Positions 13,990 to 54,534 of a stretch of DNA of 64,000 bases are shown piece by piece. The notes beneath the pieces are model-generated. The model had not been told where the DNA came from. It saw nothing but the letters and a program-made list of their open reading frames with translations, and searched no databases. This DNA is from Lama glama (taxonomy: Eukaryota), in assembly GCA_028534125.1 (NCBI GenBank), contig CM052830.1:23932001-23996000 (forward strand). The letters are read 5' to 3'. Position numbers and translations under genes: made by a program. How positions within the stretch are numbered: position 1 is the first letter of the stretch; the number at the start of each line of letters is the position of its first letter.

Positions 13990-14403
13990 GTTTTTTAGGA
14001 ACTTAGGGGCAGCTGTGTCCAGTTGGAGCCCGAACCTGTTTGGACTGATTAGGACCACCGACCCGCCAACTGCGCATGTGTGAGTGTCCGCTTGGTGACC
14101 TTTGCCATCAGAGGACCAAGAACTCCACCCTCAGCTCGTGCTCACCGCCGTCTTCTGAACGCGCACCCCGTGAATACATGGTGCCTGCACCGAACTCGGA
14201 TCGCCTCGTCTTTTGCTTATTTCCAATCACCGTTCCCCACGCCCCCCACGCCCCAGCCCGCCCTGCTCCTCAGCCCATAAATACCCCTCGCCTGCGGGGA
14301 GGCGGGACTGGGGTCTGCGCTTCTGTCTCCTCCGCAAGCCCTTCGCCTTTTAGCGTCTGGCCTGCGCTTTTAGGGCAAAGCAAACGAACTTAGTTTAGTG
14401 ATG
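13990..14403 (+). mobile_element. MER34/MER39-like ERV1 LTR (3' part)
   Basis: 'tgacctttgccatcagaggaccaagaactccaccctcagctcgtgct...ttccaatcaccgttccccacgcc...cataaatacccc...gggcaaagcaaacgaactt' matches recalled MER34-group LTR motifs. Confidence 0.7.
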
Positions 14404-14830
14404 CTCGAACCCCTTCCTCCACCCAGCAAGAGAGTCAACCTCAGGCCACCGGGGAAGACAAACTCCTCCTGTTTAAAATCTTTAGTTGCTCTTAATTCTT
14501 TCTTCCTCTCAGGCAGGTGGGCAGCTGCTAGACCACCCTGCTTCCTTGTCCAAAGAATGCCCCTCACCTTCAGCAGGACGGGTCTGGAATTCGCTCTTGT
14601 CTCCCCGCTTTTCTGCCTGTGCCCTAAAGCCTTTCTCTGCTCAACTCCGCCTTTCAGCATCTGGCCTGCACTTTTAGGGCAAAGCAAACGAACTTAGTTT
14701 AGTGATGCTCGAACCCCTTCCTCTACGCAGTAAGAGTCAACCTCAGGCCACCTGGGAAGACGAACTCCTCCTGTTTAAAATCTTTAGCTGCTCTCAGTTC
14801 TTTCTGCTTCTCGGGCAGGTGGGCGGCTGC
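14253..14830 (+). repeat. About 300-bp tandem duplication (LTR 3' end plus flank)
   Basis: 14341-14528 aligns to 14645-14830 at offset 302-304; a 53-bp perfect match at 14367-14419 = 14671-14723; the 5' halves are more diverged. Confidence 0.95.
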
Positions 14831-17859: not shown

Positions 17860-18162
17860 GGGCAGGGCACCCTCGTCACTGGCCAAATCTGCCTGTCTCC
17901 TGTTTCTGTATCACCTCCGAGCTAAGGGCGATTTTTGTTTTTAAAATGGTTGAAAAAAATTAAAGAAAAATGGCATTTTGTGACCCCCGAAAATTACCCG
18001 AACTTGAAGTTGTCGTGTCCCTAAACTTCCTCGGAAGCAGACCCGTTCTTTTATGAATTGTCTGGCGCCTCTGCGACACGTTTCGTGTTCCGGCGCGCGT
18101 GCAGTCCCAGTGCAGGCCAAACACTCACTATCCGGCCCATCAGGGAGACATTCGACCTCCGA
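17860..18162. mobile_element. MER58B-like hAT-Charlie DNA transposon
   Basis: 'ggccaaatctgcctgtctcctgtttctgta...gagctaag...ttttaaaatggttgaaaaaaattaaaga...cactatccggccc' is collinear with the recalled MER58B consensus. Confidence 0.85.
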
Positions 18163-19494
18163 CAGACTCGGCAGTTAATGTCTTACTGCACGTGTTCTAT
18201 TACGTGTTCATCCAGCTACAAACATTGCGAACCAGACGCTAGCAGGAGGCCAACACGCGGCGCCGGCAGAGAAGCAGCGCCCGGACTTCTGTGAGGTGTG
18301 AGGGCCGGGGGTCAGGCGGGCGGCCGCTCTGCCCCGCCACCTGGGCGGCGCGTGCGTTTGGAGTCGCCTTGACAGGAAGACGGTCGCTGCTGGTGGCTCT
18401 TCGGGTCCTCCTGGCGGTGGACGGGGCTCGCTGGATGCTGTGAACGTGGAGAGTTCCCGTCGTGTGTAATTCTGTGCTGGAAGCTTACTTGACTCTGTGG
18501 ACTTCATGCTCCAAGGACCCGAGCCCACACAGCCGCTTTGTGCGCCCGGTGCCCAGCACAGTGGGCGCACCTGACCTCCGTCACCGTGTTACACGAATGA
18601 ATAACTGACTCCCAGGCAGGAGGGAGACACCAACCCCTTCTGGCCAGAGTAGTTATTGCCCTTGCTTGCCTGTGGCAGGATTCTCTGGACCAACCAGGGG
18701 AGACTGGAGGGGAGGGGAGGTGCCAACTAGCCTCCATCCTGGTGGGAGCTGCGCACACGGGGGCGCTGTGGGATGTGCCCCGCCCCCCGGGAGGGCAGGT
18801 AGTTCCCCCGAGTCACCATCACATCGGGAGGAGGGGCCGCGCCCCTCCTGCAGGCGTCACCTATACCATTTTGGCTTTCTAGGTGGCTTGTGAAAACAAG
18901 CTTCAAAATAGTTCCGTAAAAGGCAACGTGATTGCAAACAGGTGTCCCGAACGCATAACATGGTCTCCTGTTTCTGAGTAACTTTTTAAAAAAAAGAACA
19001 GAAGAGCCGTCGGTCTGGGGTGGCGAAAAGGGTCAGAGAAGCGGCGTAACTGGGTGATTCCCGAGAGGCTCGCAGGGCACCCGGCTCCAGGTGCCGGCCC
19101 CTCCGCCGCCTCTGTGACAGTGATCGCAGAGCTGCCTCCCCCCGGCGCCGAAAATTAACTGGGCGTCCCCTTGGGGGACGTCCTTTTGGCTACGTTTGTT
19201 TTCTTTTCCATTTTGGCGAGTCGGAGAGGCTGGGTGTGCTGCCCACTCGCCCAACAGCCCTTGACACGGGAGAGGAGCGTCCTCTCCGTTCGTGGATTCA
19301 CTTGCTCAGGAATCTCACGCTTGTGGCTGGTCCTGTGCGGGGGGGGGGGGTGGCTGAACCCGAGGGGCTCCTGATTGTCCAGGCGTAGCAATTCCACTCT
19401 CCTCGCCGATGTCTGGTTTGAAAACGATCCTGTAACTCACTTTGGGCTGATGAGGCGTGAGGGCACATCTTTTGAGCTTCTGGGAAAGAGCTCT

Positions 19495-20010: not shown

Positions 20011-20269
20011 GTTATGGGGTGACGTGAACTTCACGTAGAGGGGGCAACACTCCAAGCTGGGTGCACGCTGGTTGTGAGCTGCAGGACGACCACACGTACT
20101 AGAGGAGCCAGAGCCTGAGCCATGTCTGTGTGAGGATCCAGGCATCACCGAGCATCCAGGTCCTCTCATGGGGGTGGCGCCCAGGGGTGCACAGCGGGCG
20201 CTGGCATGCGGACCCCTCCTCGGAGCCCAGCTCAACGCCAGCCCGGCCAGCCTCGACGGTCTGCAGGCT

Positions 20270-20587
20270 CACCGCCGTGTGCTTCCCCGCAGCTCTGGAG
20301 GCTGAGAGGCTGCAGTCAAGGTGTCGGCAGGGTCGGCTTCCTCTGAGGTCACTTGACTTGCTCTTAGATGGCCGCCTGCCCCGTGTCCTCACCTGATCCT
20401 CCCTCTTTGGGCCTGTGGGTCCTCCTCTCCCTTCCTTATAAGGAACCCAGTCCCTTTGGTTAGCGCCCACTTCTTTTAAGTTACGTATCCCCATAAAGAC
20501 CCTACCTTCCCATACGGCCACATTTGGAGGTCCTGGGGTTAGGACTTGAACGTGTGATTTTAGGGGGACATGAGTCAGCCCATCACA
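20270..20587 (-). mobile_element. MLT1B/C/D-like MaLR LTR
   Basis: 'cagctctggaggctgagaggc...caaggtgtcggcagggtcggcttcctctgagg...tcctggggttaggactt...ggggacatgagtcagcccatcaca' (minus-strand start TGTGATGGGCTGA). Confidence 0.9.
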
Positions 20588-20989
20588 GAAGACTGGGATC
20601 AACACGAAGACGCCCCCCACCCCGTAGGTGGGAACCCAGTGCCCCCACTAAAGGGAAAGACAAGGGAAATCCAGACCAGCCAGGGCTGCCTGCGACGGGC
20701 ACACAGCCAGAGGACACCCCGACCCTCTGGCCTCCCGAGCACAGCCCTGTGGGGCCTGCCCCTCCCAGCCGCCAGCTCTCGGGCAGCCTCGAGGCTAATT
20801 GCTTGGCAAGGATGCCACCAGGGGAGAGTAAAGGCCTGGAGCCGGCTCTGGGCTGCAAGATAGGGCGTCTCCAGCCCAGAGCTTATCAGCACACGGCTGG
20901 GTCGGGATCCGGTAATTAGAACAACATGCCCAGAGCAGCACGGGCATCTGCCCGCCCGCTCACGCCCCCAGACGGCCGCCGGCTGGCAG

Positions 20990-21760: not shown

Positions 21761-22611
21761 GAGCAGAGGCCGAAAGGACCCCGGGCACCGAGCTGCTTTC
21801 CTGCTTAGACCAGAGGCTCCTGGAGGGCAGGGCCTGGCCCTCCTCACACACGTCTCAGACGCAGCGCTCCAACCTCAAACCCTGGAGAAGCTTCTGCAGG
21901 GCCTGGGTCACCAAGTCAAGCTTCTCTGTTAGCTGTGCCTGCGTGTCTGTCCCACTGCTTGCCCCGGAAGCGGCTTCCCAGAGTTTTCTAGAGGGCTCAA
22001 TGCTCTGGGCAGCCATCTGAGGGCTGATGGAATGTGGGGAGGAGGGGGCAGCTCATCCCACCTTCGCCTTCTCTCTTCTGCCCCCAGTGTAGGAATCCTG
22101 GAATTCAGTGGCGTGGAGCAGATCCTGGCAGGTGGTGTCGGGGTCCCGGGTCCCCGGGGACTGGGTGGATGGCCCTACGGGATGGCTGCGGGGCAGCCAG
22201 GCACTCTAGGGAGAGGGGAGGAAAGGTCCCCCCGAAGGAGATGGGAGGCAGAAGGTTCTCGGGCTCAGCCAGCCCGTCCCATGATGTGTGCCCTGTTCAC
22301 CTGGGGACCTAGTGCCTGGCACACAGTGGGTGATCAGCACGCACCAGTGGAATGTGCAGCGTGTCAGAAGAGCAGTCTTAAGGTTGCTCAAGCTCGGCAG
22401 TGCTTGACCCCCTTAGCAATGCTGGGATCCGCTGCCAGCTTGCACCCCTCCAAGGACAAAGCGCTCCCTCCATCCTGGGGCGGCCCGTGCACAGTGGTCA
22501 GAGACTCTTCACGTCCTGAGCTGGAGCCCACCCCTCTCACCACTGCGCCCGTGCCCTCAGAGCCACCAGAGCCAGTGTGCTGGATCCACAGGAGACAGCA
22601 GAGCCGCTTCC

Positions 22612-22690
22612 CTGAGCTGTGTGATCCTGCCACACTTCTGAGCCTCTCTGAGCCCCAGCTTCCTCATCTATGGAATGTGGAGAACACCTT
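22612..22690 (+). mobile_element. MIR fragment
   Basis: 'agctgtgtgatcct...agcctctctgagccccagcttcctcatctatggaatg'. Confidence 0.75.
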
Positions 22691-23099
22691 GCTGTCAAAG
22701 GTGGACACACTTACACACAGCCACCCGGCACCAGATGGACTGCCTCCTTCAGGTGCTCCAGTGCCCACCGGCTCCTCCCAGACCGAGCACCCAGTCCCCG
22801 CTTGTGAGTGGCCTGACTTGTCATGGTGCCCAGTGGACCCCCCATCTTGGCTCCTCTCGTCCCCGGCCAGGCCCGGGGCTCAGACTGACCCCAACACGGG
22901 GCATCTCTGGTCTACCCTGCTCCCCAAGGCCATGCCCGCCAGCCCTTCCGGCTGCCCCAGGAACTGCCACTGGGGGAAAGGGGGAGAGAATGAGGAAGGG
23001 ACGGGGCTTCTGGGGACACCCAGTGGGGGAGCACCCAAGAGGGAGGAAACGAGTGTGGGCCCAGCTGTGCTGGGGTGGAGCCCAGTCTCCGGTTCTGGT

Positions 23100-23172
23100 C
23101 AGCCTCCTCTGAGCCTCGGTTTCCCCGTCTGTAAAGTGGTGATAGCGCTTCATTTGCGGGTTGCTATGGAGA
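23100..23172 (+). mobile_element. MIR fragment
   Basis: 'ctctgagcctcggtttccccgtctgtaaagtggtgata'. Confidence 0.8.
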
Positions 23173-23554
23173 CCGTCTGCAGCGGTCCTGGCTGAACAGT
23201 GCTGTTTCCATTGTTAAGTGTGCGCCCAACTGCCGTGGCACCTGATTGAGGGGCCTGGGGCCTTTCTGCTTTGCTTTGTTTAGCTAGTATTTTTGAAGAG
23301 ACCTTTGGAACCCACAGGAGTCCTGGCCCCAAACCAGGCCTCAGGCAATGGGCGCTCAGGCCTCCCAGCTCCAAGGCCTGCAGGTCTGTCCCTCCGGGCC
23401 GTGGCCCCGGGCCAGCTCCAGCCCAAAGCGGGTCAGCCCTGCCATCAGCTGTCTCCCGGGAAAGGGGGGATTGGCAGGGGCAGAAGAAGGGGCGAGAGCA
23501 AAGGAAAGGCTGGGGGCGGGGGGGCGGCTCCTCTGAAACGGGGAACTGGCGAAG

Positions 23555-28609: not shown

Positions 28610-29290
28610 TTTGTGCGCGGCCTGGTCTGAGCCTCACAGGAGGCCCTTGACGTTAACGTCACCCTTTTTACAGGCGGGCGGGCCGAGGGCCCCAGCTCCC
28701 CAGGGTCTCAGCGGTACCTGTGCAGCCGGGACGGGAGCCGCCGCCGCCGCCCCTTCTCCGGGCGTGTGCCCGCCCGGAGGGCCGCACCCGGGACCGACCG
28801 CGCTCCGCCAGAGGGCCAGGCGGGCCCTGCGGAGAGGCCTCTGCTCAGCTCGGACCTCTCCTAACCCGAGGTCGGGCGGGGCTGGGCTGGGGGCCCCGAC
28901 TCACTTCACGCCCCGCAGCACCGCAAATAAAAATGCCTTACATGCTTTTTTAAAAAAACGACTTAAAAGGAAAAAGAGGGTCACGATGTGGCACTTCAAA
29001 GCAGTCCCCAGCGGACCGGATCCCTAGTAATTAAGGAGAAGGAAATAATAAAGAGATGCTTTCATCGTCTGTTTGGCAAAGAGTTAAAAGCCAGCACCTG
29101 GAGTGGGGGGGCGGGGCTGGTCGGCTGGGGGGGGTCAGCGCGCGCAGCGCCCCCTCCCTCCTCGGGTCCCCCTCGTCTCCACCCGCTGGTGGGGCCCGTG
29201 GACTCGGAGACTGGACGCGACGGCCGATGCAGTACGGCATTCTGTATGAGGGACTCCTCGAATTCTGGCCTCGAGGGGTCCGAGGGCCCA
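28610..29290. promoter_or_regulatory. Orphan CpG-island-like region with an AT-rich core
   Basis: Dense CpG/GC flanks (28670-28925, 29100-29290) around an AT-rich core (28925-29095) with TCF-like CTTCAAAG and GTAATTAA; no exon evident. Confidence 0.55.
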
Positions 29291-42774: not shown

Positions 42775-42995
42775 GACACAGAGAACCTGCTGTGTGCCAG
42801 GAATGGTGTCTGGGGACACAGTGAAGGGAAAGACACGGAAATCCAGTGGAGGCAGCCAACAAGTCACCAAGCTATCAGAATCACAAAGGATGCAGACAAT
42901 GCTGCAGGAGCACAGAGGAGGGGGAGCTGTCAGTCTGGTGCCCTGGAAGGCTTCCTGGAGGAGGTGACCCCTGAGTGGAGAGGACCAGTGAGTTG
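42775..42995 (-). mobile_element. L2 fragment
   Basis: 'gagaacctgctgtgtgccagg...tggggacacagtga...ggaaggcttcctggaggaggtgac'. Confidence 0.75.
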
Positions 42996-44074
42996 AACAT
43001 ACAAAAGCCAGAGGCCCCTCTTGACAATAATTCCCACCTCCCAGGCTGGACTGAGGGTGCACCATGACCGTGTGCTGAGTCCACCTGTCGCTGGGCACTC
43101 AGCAGGGCCGGCCCTTGCCCACACCTGCTCTTGGAAGCATCCTCAATAGTGAGGCCATGGTCATGCTGACAGTCTTAACTGGAGAGCTGGGCTTTTGGGA
43201 GATACCAGCCAGGTCCCTGAGCCAGAAACCCTCAGGCCAGTACGGGGGACACGCAGCAGCCAGCTTTGGCTGGAATGTGGGACTTTGCAGGTAAATCCAG
43301 GTGACCTGCGGCTGAGAACCCAGCTGTGGAAGGCCTTGATGTTGGGCTGTGGGGTGCCATCTTGCAGGTCCAGGTCATTGGCTATGACCCTTTTCCCCAG
43401 AATCCTGGGCTTCTGCAGAATTCCCAGGCCTGCTGCAGGGTGAGGGCTGGGCTGCTGCAGTCTGGACCCCACGCCATTGCAAGTGCAGAAGCTCCACCCA
43501 ACCTGTGTTCCACAATGCAGGCAGTGAAGGCGAGGTGCTCAGAGACAACGTGCAAATAAAAGGCACAGATGTTGAGGGGTGCTGGGCCGGCAAGGAGACC
43601 GCCACGGGCTGATTCGGGGAACGAGGCATGAGGTGCATCAGGGAGGCCTGGCCACTGCTAGGAGTCTGTTGCAACAGAACCCATGGGGGCCCACCTGGCT
43701 CCAGCCAGGCTGGGCTGGGGGCTGTAGAGAAAAGGAGAGGCGGAGGCCACACTCCGGGGGGAGATGGAAGAGCTGGCCTTGGCCCAGATGGGGTGCAGGT
43801 CTCATCTCCCTGCTTCAGCTACTTGGGGGAGGAACCATGGTCCATGCACCTTTCTGACCTTCATACTGTCAACCGTGGTCAGTGCCTGGCAAGGCGTGAG
43901 CGTTTTCTAAGTGCCCGTCTGAACGAACAAGGGCCCGGGACCTGCAACCCCCAAATGTAGGTTCTGTGGGAGCTGAGAAATAGCGCCACGACCCCCCATG
44001 CAGAGGCCCCCTGGTGCGTGGGTGAGGGCGTAGGCTCTGCAGCCAGGGCTCAGCCCTAGCCCCTCTCCCTGCTG

Positions 44075-44595
44075 GCTGCAGGACCTTGGCCAGTGACTTA
44101 ACCTCAGGTTGGCGCAATCTCTTACCTGTAAAGTGGGAATAATAAGAGTGTATATTTCGTAGAGTTGTGAGGATTGTTCTGGAATGTTTGTGTCCTCCCC
44201 AAATTCATGTGTTGAAGCCCTAACCCCCCCCCAAGAGGGTATCTGGAGGTGGGGCCTTCAGGGGATAATCAGGTTGAGATGAGATCACGAGGGTGGAGCC
44301 CCTGGGGTGGGATTAGTGCCCTTAGGAGAAACGTGAGAGCGACCTTTCTGCCACCACATGAGGGTGCAGCGAGAGGCCATCTGCCAGCCCTGAAGAGAGC
44401 CGTCCCAGGCACTGGGTCAGCCAGCACCTTCGTCTTAGACTTCCAGCCTCCCGAACGGCGCGCGATCGGTGTCTGCCGGCTAGGACACAGTCTGTGTGTT
44501 TCGTCACAGCGGCCGGAGCAGACCAAGACAGGCTGCACGCAAAAAACGTGCTCCGGACAGTGCCGGCAGCACAGGCAAGTTCAGAACGTGATGAA
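44075..44595 (+). mobile_element. MIR interrupted by an MLT1A0 LTR
   Basis: MIR 5' part 'gaccttggccagtgacttaacctc...ctgtaaagtgggaataata...gagttgtgaggat'; MIR tail-like sequence resumes after 44530. Confidence 0.7.
44175..44530 (+). mobile_element. MLT1A/MLT1A0 solo LTR, full length
   Basis: 'gaatgtttgtgtcctccccaaattcatgtgttgaagccctaacccc...ggattagtgccctta...gacttccagcctcc...gaccaagaca'. Confidence 0.92.
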
Positions 44596-45034
44596 GGGGC
44601 AGCGGTCACCGGGAAAGGGCACCTGGCATGGAGGCCAGGCTGCCTGGGCTCACGCCTGGCAGTGCGGCTTGAGCCGTGTGTCCAGCGACAGCCGTCTTCA
44701 CCTCTGTGTGTGTGTTTGCTCACTTGTCAGAGGTGGGGCAGTGATGATAGTTCTACCTGTTTCCACAGGAGCTTAACAGCAACACTCAGCTGCTGCGTAC
44801 GGCAATGCGGCTGGGCTGATGGTCACGGTGTTCTCCTAGAATCCGCACTATTCCCGTACCAGCAGGTGACAGCCCCTCGTCTCCCCGAGGGCCTCCCAGG
44901 GCCCTCCCTGATGTGTCACAGCCCAGCAGCTGGGTCCATCGCTGGCACCAGAGGCCTGCTTCGCCGCGTGGGCCCATCGCTGAGTTAACAAGGGTTCCCA
45001 GAATGCTTTGAGGGACGATGCCATCGGTACTGGC

Positions 45035-45135
45035 GTCCATTCATTCAATACACGCTCACTGACTGCCTCCAAATGCCTGGGGATCTAGAGAGAAATAAGG
45101 CCTGGTCTCTGCCCTCAGGAGACGACCGTCAGGCA
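45035..45135 (-). mobile_element. L2 3' end
   Basis: 'cattcattcaatacacgctcactga...ggtctctgccctcagga'. Confidence 0.65.
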
Positions 45136-45273
45136 GTGAGAGGCCGAGTGTCAGGGTGCACGGGGCCCTGGGGGCTCTTCGTGGGGAGACGGAGGCAGGC
45201 GCGCCTGCCCTGCGTGAGGGTCTGACGCCTCCTGGGCCAGCAGCGGCCTCTCTACCTGATACTCTCCCCGTGT

Positions 45274-45481
45274 GGCGTTGCCAGGTTCAGCAGATGAAAA
45301 CCCAGGGCGCTCTGTCAAATAATTTCAGACAAACAATGAAGTCTCTTTCTTTTTTCTTTTTCTGTTTTTTTTAGTGTTAAGTGTGTCTCAAAATATTACA
45401 TGGGACATAACACTGAAAAAAGCCTTCGTGGTCTGTGAAATTCACATCTGAGTGAGCGCGCTGTACCCTATCCAGCAACCC
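45274..45481. mobile_element. MER53 palindromic hAT MITE
   Basis: Termini 'gcgttgccag' and 'ccagcaaccc'; internal 'aatttcagacaaacaatgaa...ttagtgttaagtgtgtctcaaaatattacatgggacata...tgaaattca'. Confidence 0.85.
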
Positions 45482-45809
45482 CGCTCTGAGGTCAGTTATA
45501 GCCAGCAACCTGTTACCTGTCAGGTGGGACCCTCTTCCGCTCCCGTACCTGAAAGGCCGTCTCAGATACAGCTTCGCTTCCTGGAGAAGAAAGGGGCAGA
45601 GCAGAGAGGGAGACGAGTGGGGGGGCCCGCAGGGAGCTGGGCAGAACGTGGGGGTGCGGGAGGGAGGCAGGGAGGGGTGGATGGGAGGGAAGGGGAGGCA
45701 GAGCTGAGGGGGGAGAGCACCGCCCCCCTCCGCGGCCTCCCCCACCACCATGCGGAAGCAGATGCGTTGGGAGGAGGTGCGGACACATCTTGGGAGCCGG
45801 GGTGTGCTC

Positions 45810-46340
45810 TCTGAAATGTCAGCAGAAATAAACCTGGCTAATCCTCCACGATGGCCCGTCACATTAATCTCCCTGAGATTCCAAGCGGATTAAAATAACC
45901 ACGAGCATGACACCACTTGGAAGGCCGGGGATTTACTTGGAAGCAGTGCCCCACTGGCGAGCATTCCTCTAATTGCTGCTTCGTATAAATAGAGTGTTCT
46001 TTAATATCGCCACCGGCCCTGGCTAACAGATTTAGAAGGGAGCTGTCGGAGTCGTCAGTGCCCCAGCCGTGGTAAACCGAGGCTCTGGTCGGGCTGTAAA
46101 TGGGATTCTCGCGGGCCGATCAATCTGACCAAAGCCGCCAGCGTTGCCTGTTGATCTGCAAAGTCCTCGGTGGCTACGGCTTCCCAGAATTGTGCTTGCA
46201 TCTGTCAGAATTATAAGCAGCTGGCAGCTGATGCAAAGGTCAGATTTGCTGCTAGTGTGGAAACAGAATTTCCCCAGCACCAGAAATGCTACTTGGCAGC
46301 GTGTCCACTGCAGGAGGGTCATTAGGGGAGGAGTGTGTAT
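45810..46340. promoter_or_regulatory. Candidate conserved enhancer with clustered K50-homeodomain sites
   Basis: TAATCC at 45839, TAATCT at 45865, GGATTA at 45887; tandem E-boxes CAGCTGGCAGCTG at 46218-46230; non-repeat. Confidence 0.5.
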
Positions 46341-49300
46341 TGCAGCCTCAGGTGCCTGGAGCCGGCTTCCTCTGTCAGCCCACACTGGACACACAGGCAG
46401 GTGCTCAGACGGGCGACACTAGACAGCAGTCAGTCCCCAGCGAGCGCTTCAGCGCCCTCATCATAAGGCGGTTTTCTAACAAGTGCTTGCAGGCGCCTGC
46501 TGACTCGGGCGCTGTTCCAGGCACGGCGTACACTCGGTGAAGACCTCTTACTGGTGGGCTGGTGGCCTTGGACATACTATTTCCTGGCTCTGCTGAGCCT
46601 CAGGTTGGCCGTCTTTAGCCTGGGGACAGTATCTCCTACTTCAGAGAGCGTTTAGGGACCTAATTTCATCAGGCCTTAGGTGCTGGGGCAGCTCGCACTC
46701 CAGGTACACTCTCCGTAACTCGTGTCAGACGCCCGTCAGGAAAGGACAGGCCCAGATCCAGAGAGGCCACCCCGTGAGGAGTGCGTAAAGGTCTAAATCC
46801 CGGAGTCCCGAGCCGTGGGGACGCGGGCTGCATTGGAAGGGCAGACCTGGTCTGGGGGGCGGTTCACAGCACAGGCAGCTTCCAGGGTCTGTGGGCCACC
46901 TGAACGCATCCCCAGTCAGAGTGGGCCCCAGAGAAGCAGGTCCTGCCCCACCCAGGGAGAGGCGTCAGGGAGAGGCAGGTCCCAGAGCCCCCTGCCGCCC
47001 GGCTCAGGCGGGGCGGGCCGGGAGGGAGCCAGGTGGTCTCCTGGACTTCGTTCTGCTCTGTTTCGTCAGCTGGAAGGCTCCTCCCCTCTCCAACGAGTCT
47101 GGAACCTATTCTCTGTCAGGAATCGGGTCCGGGGTAAGCCAAGCAGTTCTTGGTTGAGATGGCTCACGAGATGACATCAGACGCCATCGGCAAGTCAGTT
47201 TTGGGCATTGTGACAAAGTGCCACCCAAACTCAAATTCACTTAAAATCCGTCTCAACAAGGTGGCTTCCGGAAGAGTCAGCCGAGGCTTTGTCCCATCCC
47301 AGCTGCTGGCACGTCCCTCCCTGGGGCGAGTCCTGTGTCTGCACCGCACGCTCCGTGCTTGGAAGTCCTGTTCCGTCCTGCAGCTCCAAGCCTCACTCAT
47401 GTCAGCCTGCGGCTGCTCGGCTCGGCTCGGCTGAACGGAAGGACTGTGAGCTTTGCATCCCTCCGGCCTGGGAGGGCACCCCCGTCCGCTCCGCCCAGCC
47501 GCCCCCCACTCCTAGGACCCCCCTTTCACACATGACGTTGGGGTGGTCTTATCATCTGCGACCCCGGCGGTTATGATTGGCAGCTCTTTTTCTTTATTAC
47601 GTGTAAAAGCATGGTATGTCTCACGATCTACGAAGTCTTGGATTTGATGAATTAAGGGTCTGGCCTTGGTAAGTCCCCTCTGTGAACCTGCTTCCAACAA
47701 CTGTAAACTGGCAGGGCTGTTGTGAAGCCGAAACAAGAGGCCCGCGGGGAAGGCGCCTGCCCGGGGCAGTCCCCGAGGGTGGGAGGACCCGAATGCTGCT
47801 AGCCATCTCCGCGGCTTCTCAGTGAGGAGGAAGATTCCAGAAGTCCTGACTCTGGCTCTGGCGCTGGGACCACCCCCACGCCCTGTCTGTCCCTCTGACT
47901 CGTCTGTGTGATGTCAGCTTTGAAGTGATTGCATGTGACGCTCAAAAAGAATTTCCCAAAATTACACATAGGTATAAAATGAAGGGAGAAAAGGGCCGTT
48001 TCCCGTCAGGTTGAAAATGGCAGAGTGAAGCGGGATTGCCCCTCCTCTGGCCACACATCTGCGCTCTGACGCGGTTTTCAGTCCCCAGGAGTATCTCCTA
48101 TAGGCAGAAAGCAGCCCTTCAAGGGACAAATAGTGGAGCCAGACACCACAGGAAAGGAGCCCGGACCGGGAGGCAGGGGATCCAGGACCAAAGGGCGCTG
48201 GCTGTGTGAGTGTCCGTCCTGTGCCTGCCTGGGCCTCAGCGTCCCCTTCTGCAAAGTGGGCGGGCACGTAGGACAATCCTCACCCACCGGCCACCCTTTG
48301 ACAAATGAAGATTAATAGATTAACTTGGGAGAAGGAAATCTTCTGTGTTTAAAAAAAAAAGTTTTATTTTTCTGTTTCGATGCCCTGCACAAATACACCC
48401 GACTGCCCATGAGCACGTGATGCAGCCACACATGCGTGTGCACGTCTCCCTTTTGCTCTTCCTCTTTCTGCTCGACCCCTGTCCTCACTCTGGGAGACCC
48501 TGCAGGACCTTTCTCGCTCTGCTGGTCATATTTCTGGGGCCAGAAAAATTCCGGGGAAAGGAAAGCAAACAGCGCCGTGGGGTTGCGGTTACCCGTGGTG
48601 CTGACAGTGAGTCGGGCTCTGGGGGGTGGTCCTCGCTTGCCCCAAGGGATAATGAGTTCGCCTGGCCTCTGGCCGTCTGCCTCCCTTCCCCCTGACTCTG
48701 ACCAGCACCCCCACCCTAATTCCAGAGCAGGTCAGAACTCGGATCTGACAGTCAGGCCGTATCTCAGTTTGGCCTCCCAGCTCCCCATCCTTCATGGAAT
48801 CCAGGGATCAGGAACCCCCAGAATCACTGGGACCAGCCCTCGATCAAGGCAAGCAGTGGTCCATCCTCCCGGGAAAACATCTGGAAAGCTCGTCCCGCCC
48901 AGCTTCCTGCAGGGAGCGAGGGCTGGGCACGCCCAGACTCCTCAGGCCAGCTGGCTCATTTCCTCCACCTCAGAAACCTCTGGAAGCCGGGATGCCCACG
49001 TCCTGGCTCAACTCTTAGCCATCGGTTCAGCCAGGAACCACTCTTTTCAGGCGAGAGAAAGCAAAGCAAACATAGAAAGTTCAGCTGGACGAATAAGCAA
49101 CTCACAGAAGAAACAGGGCGGCCAAGAAACACAGGAAGGTATTTTCCATCTTGGAAGACAGCAAGGAACCCAAACGACACACTGATCTGCCCTTGGCAAC
49201 TCTGCGGGGACAAGACTGAAGGGGGGTGTCTGTCTGGAGCAGCAGGTCCTCTGGGGGGAGAGGCCCGGGCACAAGCTCTCCGGAGAGCAAGGCGGCAGCG

Positions 49301-49379
49301 CGAGGCGGACTCGCGGGCACGCGGCCCCGGACTCGGCCATTCTGCTCCGGGGGCCGTCGCACCCCGGGGTAACCGCGAA

Positions 49380-49560
49380 TGGACACGAATGTCTGAATTC
49401 AGGAATGCTCGCTGAAATGAGAAAGAACCTTCTTGTCCGTCCAGAGGGGATTCGGGAATTAACTGTGGCACATCTGTACGGTGGGATCCTATTAGGATCC
49501 GAGGTGTGCCTTGTACACTTCAGCGTAAAGAGATGCTCCTGGTATGTTGTCGGGTGGGAC
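49380..49560 (+). mobile_element. L1ME-like 3' fragment
   Basis: 'ttgtccgtccagaggggattcgggaattaactgtggcacatctgtacggtggga'. Confidence 0.5.
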
Positions 49561-50184
49561 CGGCAACTTGGCCCACACAGGCATCAGTGCGCCCAGGAGG
49601 GCGGCCTTTCACGGCCGTGAAAGCAGGAGGCAGCATGGCAGACCACAGGTCAACGGGCTTCTGGGTGACTTACAACATTTTAGCTACAACTTCTGATTTT
49701 TTTTAAAACATAAGCAGGTATTACTTATGGAAATAGTAAGCAGCGGCCAGCCCAAGGAAGGGCTCCCGGGCGCCGGGGAGGGCGGCCAGGAGGGCCTCCG
49801 GCAGAGCCTGCCCCAGCGGCGGAGGGGGCGGCCGTGAGAGCCGGGGCGAATGTCCCTCCTAGTCTTGTGCAAGCGTCAGCCTGGGGGCCAACGCCCTTCT
49901 TTTCCCTCTGCCTAAAAAACCCAGGGCTCCAGCGCTTTCCAGGGGGCCTCTGTCCCTGAGCCCTCACCGCACCGGTCTCCCCGCCCCGTCCCCGGTCCCA
50001 ATTCCTCGGCGAGGGGCCTGAGCTGCGTTGCCCAACGTGGATCCGGTCTGGATCTGAAGTCGGCAATGCCGCTTCCCGGCAGTGCGGCCTTGAGCAGTCA
50101 GAAAATGCCTCTTCGTACCCCGGATCCTGTCTGACTTTGAGCATTGCAAGAGAGGAAAAGAAGAGAAGAGAAAAGAAGGTTCAC

Positions 50185-50690
50185 GGGGGAGTATTATTCA
50201 CAACAGCCGAGACGTGGGAGCCACCTGAGTGTCCATCAGCAGACGGCTGGGTGAAGAAGACGGGTGTACGTACACTGGGGTGCTACTCAGCCAGAAAGGA
50301 GTGAAACCGCGCCATCTGCAGCAGCATGGATGGACTTGGAGGGTACTGTGCCAAGGAAATAAGTCAGACTGAGAACTACAAACACTGTATGATATTGACA
50401 CGTAGAATCTAACAGATACAGCAAACTAGTGGCTACAACAAAGGAGACTCACAGATACAGGGGACAAACTAGTGGTGCCGGGTCCAGGCGTCGAGAAGGA
50501 GTAGATTAGCTGGGGAACGGGGGTGCCTGCGCTGATGGTCACAGCCAGACAGACGCCCAGCCCCGAGTGAGCAGTCGAGGCAGCAGCCCGAAGCTCCAGC
50601 CCCCGGGGGGCACACAGCACTGCAGTCGCTGCTGCCTGGGCCAGGAAGCACCTTGCGTCCTCTGCGGGGCCGGAGCTGCCCGGGGGGGAG
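50185..50690 (+). mobile_element. LINE-1 3' end (ORF2 C-terminus plus 3' UTR), strongly GC-shifted
   Basis: 'gccatctgcagcagcatggatggacttggagggt...aaataagtcagactgaga...agactcacagatacaggggacaaactagtggt'. Confidence 0.9.
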
Positions 50691-53487: not shown

Positions 53488-54214
53488 CACAGAGTAGAGA
53501 CCACACGCAGACCAAGGCCCAGGGCAGCTGAGTCACTTCTGGGGAATCCCGCCTCCGGGTCAGCGGTCCCCTCGGCACTGATCCGAGGTGGCATTCCAGG
53601 AGCGCACCCAAGCGCCCGGCCCTGCCCCAACCTCTCAGGTCTGATGTGATTGCCTGGGGGGCCTCACCCTTGGCCTTCTATTATGTTTTCCCTGGGCTTC
53701 ATGGTCAAATCTCTGAGTATTTTTCCCTTGACATGGCCCTTTACAACTCCAACGTTGGGCCAGAACATTCCGAGACCCTGTGGAGGCCAGGAAAGGCGCA
53801 GACATCCTTGTCCCTGGCCAAGCCCTTCCCGCATGCCATTCCCCTGCGTCTGGTTCTCTGCCCTTCACGGCTCAGCTCAAAAACCACACAGCTGACACTC
53901 CCGAAAAATCTCATAAAGCCGAATCAGGAGCTTGTCAGCGAAAGGGGAACATGAGATCATGCCACCATCTCCGGCTGGCTAAATCTGTCAGCAGGCCGTC
54001 CGTCTCCAAGCCCTCCCCGGCCCCTCCTGCGTGTCCAGTCCTGTGCCCGAGACAGGGCAACGGGGCGGTTAAGTGAGGAGATGACACATAGCCTCGTAAA
54101 ACCAGAGAGGGAAGTCGAGCGCGGAGAAGAGCACCACTGGCAGCCAGGGCTCGGGAGCCCGGGGCAGGGACGCTGAGATAGACGTGGATCTGGAGCGTCG
54201 GGGGGAAGGGATGT

Positions 54215-54333
54215 GGGGGACGGGATAGCTCAGCAGGGGAGCACGTGCTTAGCAGGCGTGGGGCCCTGGGTTCGATCCCCAGCCCCTCCACTAAAAATAA
54301 ATAAATAGACCTAACCTCCCCCCACCCAATAAA
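54215..54333 (+). mobile_element. tRNA-derived camelid SINE (Vic-1-like)
   Basis: A box TAGCTCAGCAGG at 54226-54237, B box GGTTCGATCCC at 54269-54279, tail 'aaaaataaataaatagacctaacctccccc'. Confidence 0.85.
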
Positions 54334-54534
54334 GACCAGATGGAGTCTGTATAGATGGAGAGGCGGGGAGAGGCCACTCGGGCGTCAGGCAGGCGCAGCA
54401 TGGCGGGAGAACCTTAGTGGTCCCAGCTGCCCTGGCCCTTGGGTGAGGTTCCCGATCGTTCTGAGCGCTGCTCCCTCCTCCGTAGAGAGGGGCTCGGGCC
54501 AGACGAGCCCAGCGTTTTCTTTCTCGTTGAGCAT

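Follow-up and report, generated by a model that had tools for sequence, protein, structure and literature searches.

Near one end of the llama scaffold CM052830.1, the 3' part of a solo LTR contains a short stretch in which many A or T bases (W) appear to have been replaced by G or C (S), and the question arises whether this stretch is the trace of a localised gene conversion or belongs to a change of base composition that affects the whole region. The window analysed is a 64-kb stretch of DNA corresponding to positions 23,932,001-23,996,000 of the 24,942,752-bp scaffold. Its GC content is 58.5% and its CpG observed/expected ratio (o/e) is 0.49, and the five surrounding 200-kb blocks have a GC content of 0.52-0.58. 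The W→S stretch lies ~0.97 Mb from the scaffold end, which we take to be a chromosome end. Among the papers listed in literature searches, none dealt with this locus or described W→S peaks at the 3' ends of MLT1 elements.

Structure and sequence support of the locus

The LTR (Table 1) is 356 bp long, has TG...CA ends and is dispersed, with at least 40 paralogous matches of 68-80% identity in the same genome. We take it to be a MaLR-type, MLT1A-like element; the subfamily label MLT1A0, given in the original prediction, is likewise an assumption. A TATA-like stretch at 44320-44327, present in most copies, is altered in this LTR by W→S differences at 44325-44326.

The LTR interrupts a SINE (44080-44600) that is presumably MIR-like, and a search of the same genome with the SINE flank returned the self match only. 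The alignment of 26 SINE copies was too noisy for firm scoring. At 44531-44615, which includes the downstream half, 16 of 35 W columns were W→S, a count that is suggestive only, this part having served to find the copies and its 3' end being poorly aligned. The LTR is flanked by a possible target-site duplication, and both mismatches between the two copies carry G/C on the right side, a weak indication from two sites.

In 20 of the 24 sequencing runs listed (5 organism labels, 10 studies), 0.85-1.00 of the words from 42800-46200 were present, word shares that cannot show the state of the W→S stretch in each run. A run marked as a possible source contained 1.00 of the 338 words sampled from this interval, which gives no independent support.

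Table 1. Features of the interrupted SINE and its LTR, and control repeats in the window.
Feature	Position	Strand	Observation
SINE upstream half, split by LTR	44080-44175	+	11/41 W→S; low-quality alignment to 26 divergent copies
Possible left target-site duplication	44171-44175	+	junction ambiguous by one base
Solo LTR, W→S shifted over full length	44175-44530	+	paralogue alignment
CpG-enriched patch, LTR 3' end and downstream SINE half	44401-44700	.	200-bp o/e 0.73-0.88
W→S peak over A/T-rich polyA-signal segment	44451-44483	+	14/23 W columns, 0 reverse, 7 CpGs
Possible right target-site duplication	44531-44535	+	3/5 bases as in left copy
SINE downstream half, split by LTR	44536-44600	+	leans G/C; suggestive only
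Second LTR (control)	20232-20588	-	53/170 W→S vs 18/156 S→W
Old-repeat piece (control)	50180-50480	+	51/193 W→S vs 5/100 S→W; clustering not significant (p=0.71)

The W→S peak in the polyA-signal segment

The direction of change was polarised by paralogues chosen by similarity, and two alignments were used, one of 21 of 29 non-self loci of the same genome and a larger one of 36 of 53 copies, from which the other 17 were left out as short. Both gave 14 of 23 A/T columns as W→S in the 33-bp tract, with no S→W change (0/8 S columns in the larger alignment), and the other copies have 0-7 and 0-6 W→S changes there, respectively (binomial 2e-8 for the tract against other copies). As judged by pairwise comparison with each of the 36 copies, there are 7-17 differences with W in the copy and S in the window, and 0-3 in reverse. 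The 14 changes are undated, and their direction is an apparent one, as read from paralogues.

The original prediction had reported that 14 of the 32 positions in 44451-44482 differ from the presumed consensus, all A/T→G/C. The 32 letters quoted do begin at 44451, and 13 clear W→S and no S→W changes were found among them. The fourteenth clear change is at 44483, whereas position 44471, probably the one originally counted, was not scored as a clear change because it is mixed among copies (window base in 13/20 in the first alignment and in 43% in the larger one). Several new CpGs had been announced, and the tract contains seven CpGs. The AATAAA signal described as erased is indeed absent, but only 15 of the 36 other copies retain the hexamer and 21 are without it. 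Two further points did not hold. The interval 44484-44530, to which the W→S tract was said to reach, is at background (5/22), and the 5' half, offered as an internal control close to consensus, has itself 13/74 W→S vs 5/67 S→W at 44175-44330.

In the 33-bp bins flanking the tract, W→S changes occur at 1/13 W columns directly upstream and at 4/15 on the other side. The apparent sharpness of the tract arises partly because its bin is the A/T-richest, with 23 A/T columns as compared with 11-18 in the other full bins of the LTR.

The segment is colinear with its paralogues (33 bp; 13 of the 36 copies plus the window span 24-35, with a mode of 33), and 18 of the 33 columns carry the base found in most copies. 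It is therefore not an unrelated insertion, an objection that the original prediction had raised against itself. A broader doubt, that the segment was inserted, represents an ancestral variant of a subfamily or was misassembled, could draw on the assumed subfamily and on the choice of paralogues by similarity, but all eight S columns are still S and none of the 36 copies has more than six W→S changes in the segment, which makes this explanation very unlikely.

Replication template switching has reportedly been described as a source of mutation clusters, and one or two switches could have carried GC-rich sequence from close by into the segment, introducing several changes at once. An exact 8-bp inverted match connects 44473-44480, which holds 4 of the 14 changes, with 44562, and 6 of the 14 changes are transversions. 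However, inverted matches of at least this length occur within 100 bp of 129 of 600 GC-matched stretches of the window, folding is unremarkable (z = -0.90), and the transversion share is like that in the rest of the LTR (11/33). For the remaining 10 changes no source was found in the window or the fetched loci, where ungapped matches reach 21/33 at best, and a strict W→S direction is not predicted by such events. With the inverted match and the hairpin both at chance level, a template switch was rejected for the tract as highly improbable.

W→S bias of old repeats across the region

The LTR as a whole has 47/163 W→S vs 15/147 S→W. Two control repeats were scored alongside it, the second LTR, presumably also of the MaLR type, and an old-repeat piece that we take to be an L1-like 3' end. 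The bias is W→S in all three repeats examined in the window, with changes at 26-31% of W columns, and the densest W→S cluster of the second LTR (15/23 W columns at 20238-20289) lies in its own polyA-signal 3' end. A short SINE copy at 54204-54348, which is assumed to be tRNA-like, is likewise shifted (9/53 W→S vs 1/47 S→W).

The same bias extends over 1.064 Mb around the window at the chromosome end. Old repeats could be aligned there in 115 pieces totalling 44.3 kb, with 3311/25682 W→S changes against 953/12379 in reverse, and the W→S rate exceeds the S→W rate in 92 of these pieces. The counts are lower bounds, because heavily shifted stretches can bring a local BLAST alignment to an end. In library pieces with a flank GC below 0.42 the bias is reversed (W→S 5.9% vs S→W 9.8%), and the W→S rate of paralogues climbs with flank GC (Spearman 0.66, n=36, and 0.51, n=22). 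Crude GC* estimates are 0.66 for the 41 neighbouring pieces scored first and 0.38 for A/T-rich loci. Most of the old repeats near this scaffold end show a region-wide W→S bias, as in a subtelomeric region of high GC*.

How exceptional the peak is

When the tract is compared with the rest of the LTR, the difference is marked before correction (14/23 vs 33/141, p=5e-4), and it becomes mild after correction for the scan, with a p of 0.04 within the LTR, 0.05 in the first 464 kb (41 pieces) and 0.23 in 1.06 Mb (115 pieces), the last being the frequency with which shuffling of the pieces gave any net count of at least 14. The best 33-bp net counts in 1.06 Mb are 14, 13, 12, 12, 11, 11 and 11, and the tract thus tops a smooth tail. 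Peaks with a net count of at least 10 number 15 vs 7.0 by shuffling, an excess of ~2-fold. The A/T-rich controls are also overdispersed, short-range W→S clustering here is no stronger than in those controls, and W→S and S→W changes are also clustered with one another. The excess of peaks is therefore not specific to a conversion tract, and W→S clustering was rejected as a tract signature.

A near twin of the tract was observed at ~24,013,987 of the contig, ~38 kb away, where a 33-bp old-repeat stretch combines 7 CpGs with W→S changes at 13/18 and S→W changes at 1/11 columns.

The polyA-signal segment is also shifted in three other nearby subtelomeric LTRs (10/18, 11/22 and 13/23 W→S, 50-57%). 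In the second LTR of the window, its 3' segment has 10/18 vs 42/154 elsewhere (p=0.016), and paralogues of that family with GC-rich flanks give 56/304 in the segment vs 296/2243 in the rest (p=0.017), whereas paralogues of the first LTR's family lean the opposite way (71/795 vs 600/5099). Across 15 further subtelomeric copies no greater shift of the segment was found, with 83/334 W→S inside it and 369/1277 outside (p=0.15; Wilcoxon 0.72); these are 15 of 24 rows, nine having been left out with the segment missing or the flanks poor. One left-out copy, when re-read, has 13/23 vs 52/146 and brings the totals to 96/357 vs 421/1423. An effect specific to the LTR polyA-signal end, seen in both LTRs of the window, was not replicated in the further copies and was rejected.

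Selection against a cryptic polyA signal in transcribed DNA would suit the loss of the hexamer and the shift of the matching segment in the second LTR. However, a single change would be enough and its direction irrelevant, the hexamer is missing in most other copies as well, the two LTRs lie in opposite orientations, and the further subtelomeric copies described above are no more changed in the segment than in the rest. A Pfam scan of 93 of the 98 window ORFs of at least 130 aa, from which short exons would escape, found no host gene and gave a single sub-threshold L1-related match. Such selection is scarcely credible.

A stop-free frame of 420 codons at 21933-23195 (+ strand) is without a Pfam match and is probably a by-product of the high GC content. 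Another LTR, at ~24,275,600-24,276,200 of the contig and presumably MLT1-type, has 13/23 W→S in the matching segment and only ~1 CpG there; since its middle differs, it probably belongs to a different subfamily.

Probable regional GC-biased gene conversion

GC-biased gene conversion (gBGC) acts only on transmission at existing heterozygous W/S sites. The 14 fixed changes therefore need many separate mutations and episodes, and not one conversion. The tract is probably the chance upper tail of a long-running, region-wide subtelomeric gBGC rather than one local tract. High subtelomeric recombination would have repeatedly favoured G/C alleles at heterozygous sites throughout the age of the LTR, at a sustained B that may have been roughly 2-3 for the LTR, and ~1/4 of its A/T sites would thereby have been fixed as G/C. 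A/T targets are densest in the polyA-signal segment, and many stand beside a G; this segment would then have acquired changes that are dense and often CpG-forming, perhaps with a modest local boost on top of the regional drift.

A crude two-state model calibrated on paralogues put B at ~9 for the tract, with a lower 95% bound of 4.6, and at ~2.3 for the remainder of the LTR; had the episode occupied a tenth of the element's age, the tract would require ~68. These values are rough, because the model under-predicts S→W changes (3.5% vs 10% seen).

The first observation is confirmed, and its interpretation is partly supported. The W→S direction stands, as does gBGC as the likely cause, whereas neither a sharp local tract nor the 5' half as its internal control is supported.

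In published work, gBGC tracts concentrate near telomeres (PMC3744432) and equilibrium GC increases toward telomeres (PMC2346554). Regional drift plus chance agrees with both and is a simpler account than a short-lived hotspot. For human hotspots, PMC4510005 gives a median B of 2.67 and an upper range of 17.93, as 1-Mb averages, an age of <0.7-1.3 Myr for current hotspots, and gBGC that is not stronger at CpG sites. Because of these estimates of strength and age, a short-lived PRDM9 hotspot is a poor fit for a narrow, deep peak. Counting against the regional reading are the scan p of 0.04 for the LTR and of 0.05 for 464 kb, the twofold excess of peaks and, as a residual oddity, the concentration of CpG-forming changes.

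The CpG-rich patch and a possible local hotspot

Changes lying in CpGs account for 9/14 in the tract vs 5/33 in the rest of the LTR. When old neighbours only are counted, new CpGs arose at 5/7 opportunities in the tract vs 4/60 (scan p ~0.01), in a post hoc test chosen after the data were seen. The patch at 44401-44700 has up to 17 CpG per 200 bp and is in the top 3% of the window's 200-bp windows by count. These figures, together with the elevated o/e across the patch, would suit a real local peak of ~300 bp (44400-44700), at which a long-lived, probably germline-unmethylated hotspot or a protein footprint brought strong gBGC, new CpGs were protected, and the LTR 3' end is turning into a small CpG island. 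The G/C lean of the downstream SINE half and of the possible right target-site copy, in a noisy alignment, points the same way, as does the overlap, according to PMC3469460, of lineage-specific CpG clusters, mostly sperm-hypomethylated, with biased-conversion regions and telomeric bands.

Against such a hotspot, non-CpG W→S changes are not significantly raised in the tract (8/16 vs 22/81, p=0.08; 4/9 vs 16/61, p=0.26, by an alternative count), five other places in the window have at least 7 CpGs in 32 bp, and other top W→S peaks of the 1.06 Mb also contain 5-7 CpGs. A gBGC tract would be expected to be hundreds of bases wide with W→S raised on both sides, and the flanking bins, above all that directly upstream, do not show this; the peak is narrower than published tracts, which measure 200-1000 bp. 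The B required, ~9 for the whole age of the LTR or ~68 for a tenth of it, also compares poorly with the human median of 2.7 and upper range of 18 (1-Mb averages). A local hotspot is the main alternative, tentative and rather unlikely. More doubtful still is its fullest form, in which the dead polyA signal of an old LTR would be giving rise to a 300-bp CpG micro-island at a stable, unmethylated, PRDM9-independent recombination spot, with B near 9 over tens of millions of years; the LTR family and the target-site duplication would then act as an ancestral ruler.

Further small CpG-dense patches are present in the window at 49284-49390, 28718-28821 and 18064-18378, with up to 8 CpG in 32 bp.

Relation to known systems

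The gBGC tracts predicted by phastBias (Capra et al. 2013, PMC3744432) resemble the present case in W→S-biased divergence that is clustered subtelomerically. They are assigned to lineages and measure 200-1000 bp (human median 788 bp at B=3 and 276 bp at B=10), whereas the tract here is 33 bp, undated and inseparable from the regional background. The telomere-proximal rise of GC* (Duret and Arndt 2008, PMC2346554) is similar in that non-coding DNA near chromosome ends moves to higher GC, but was obtained from orthologous primate alignments; paralogous repeats, as used here, cover a much longer time and give rough values. Clusters of CpG beacons (Bell et al. 2012, PMC3469460) share the clustering of new CpGs near a chromosome end and the link to biased conversion. 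They are species-specific as established via orthologues, with at least 20 per kb in extreme clusters, as compared with 7 CpGs in 33 bp here. Stable strong gBGC with CpG retention at PRDM9-independent hotspots in hypomethylated regions (bioRxiv 10.1101/2023.11.17.567540) would suit the residual CpG excess, but those hotspots sit at germline-hypomethylated, promoter-like loci, while the patch here is known from its sequence. Searches of the main text of that source for alpaca, camel, Vicugna and llama gave 0 matches.

On the best reading, the tract reflects long-term subtelomeric gBGC, a known process, plus chance. As such it may serve as a teaching example, old repeats near a chromosome end recording ~1/4 of A/T sites turned to G/C, and as a caution that A/T-rich segments yield eye-catching W→S peaks by chance. 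If the local hotspot were real, a CpG island would be arising from neutral repeat DNA, which bears on the origins of such islands. With paralogues as the reference, as here, long-term gBGC could be mapped along a chromosome even where orthologues are unavailable.

A local direct duplication of ~188 bp with 90% identity was also observed in the window, at 14341-14528 and 14645-14830.
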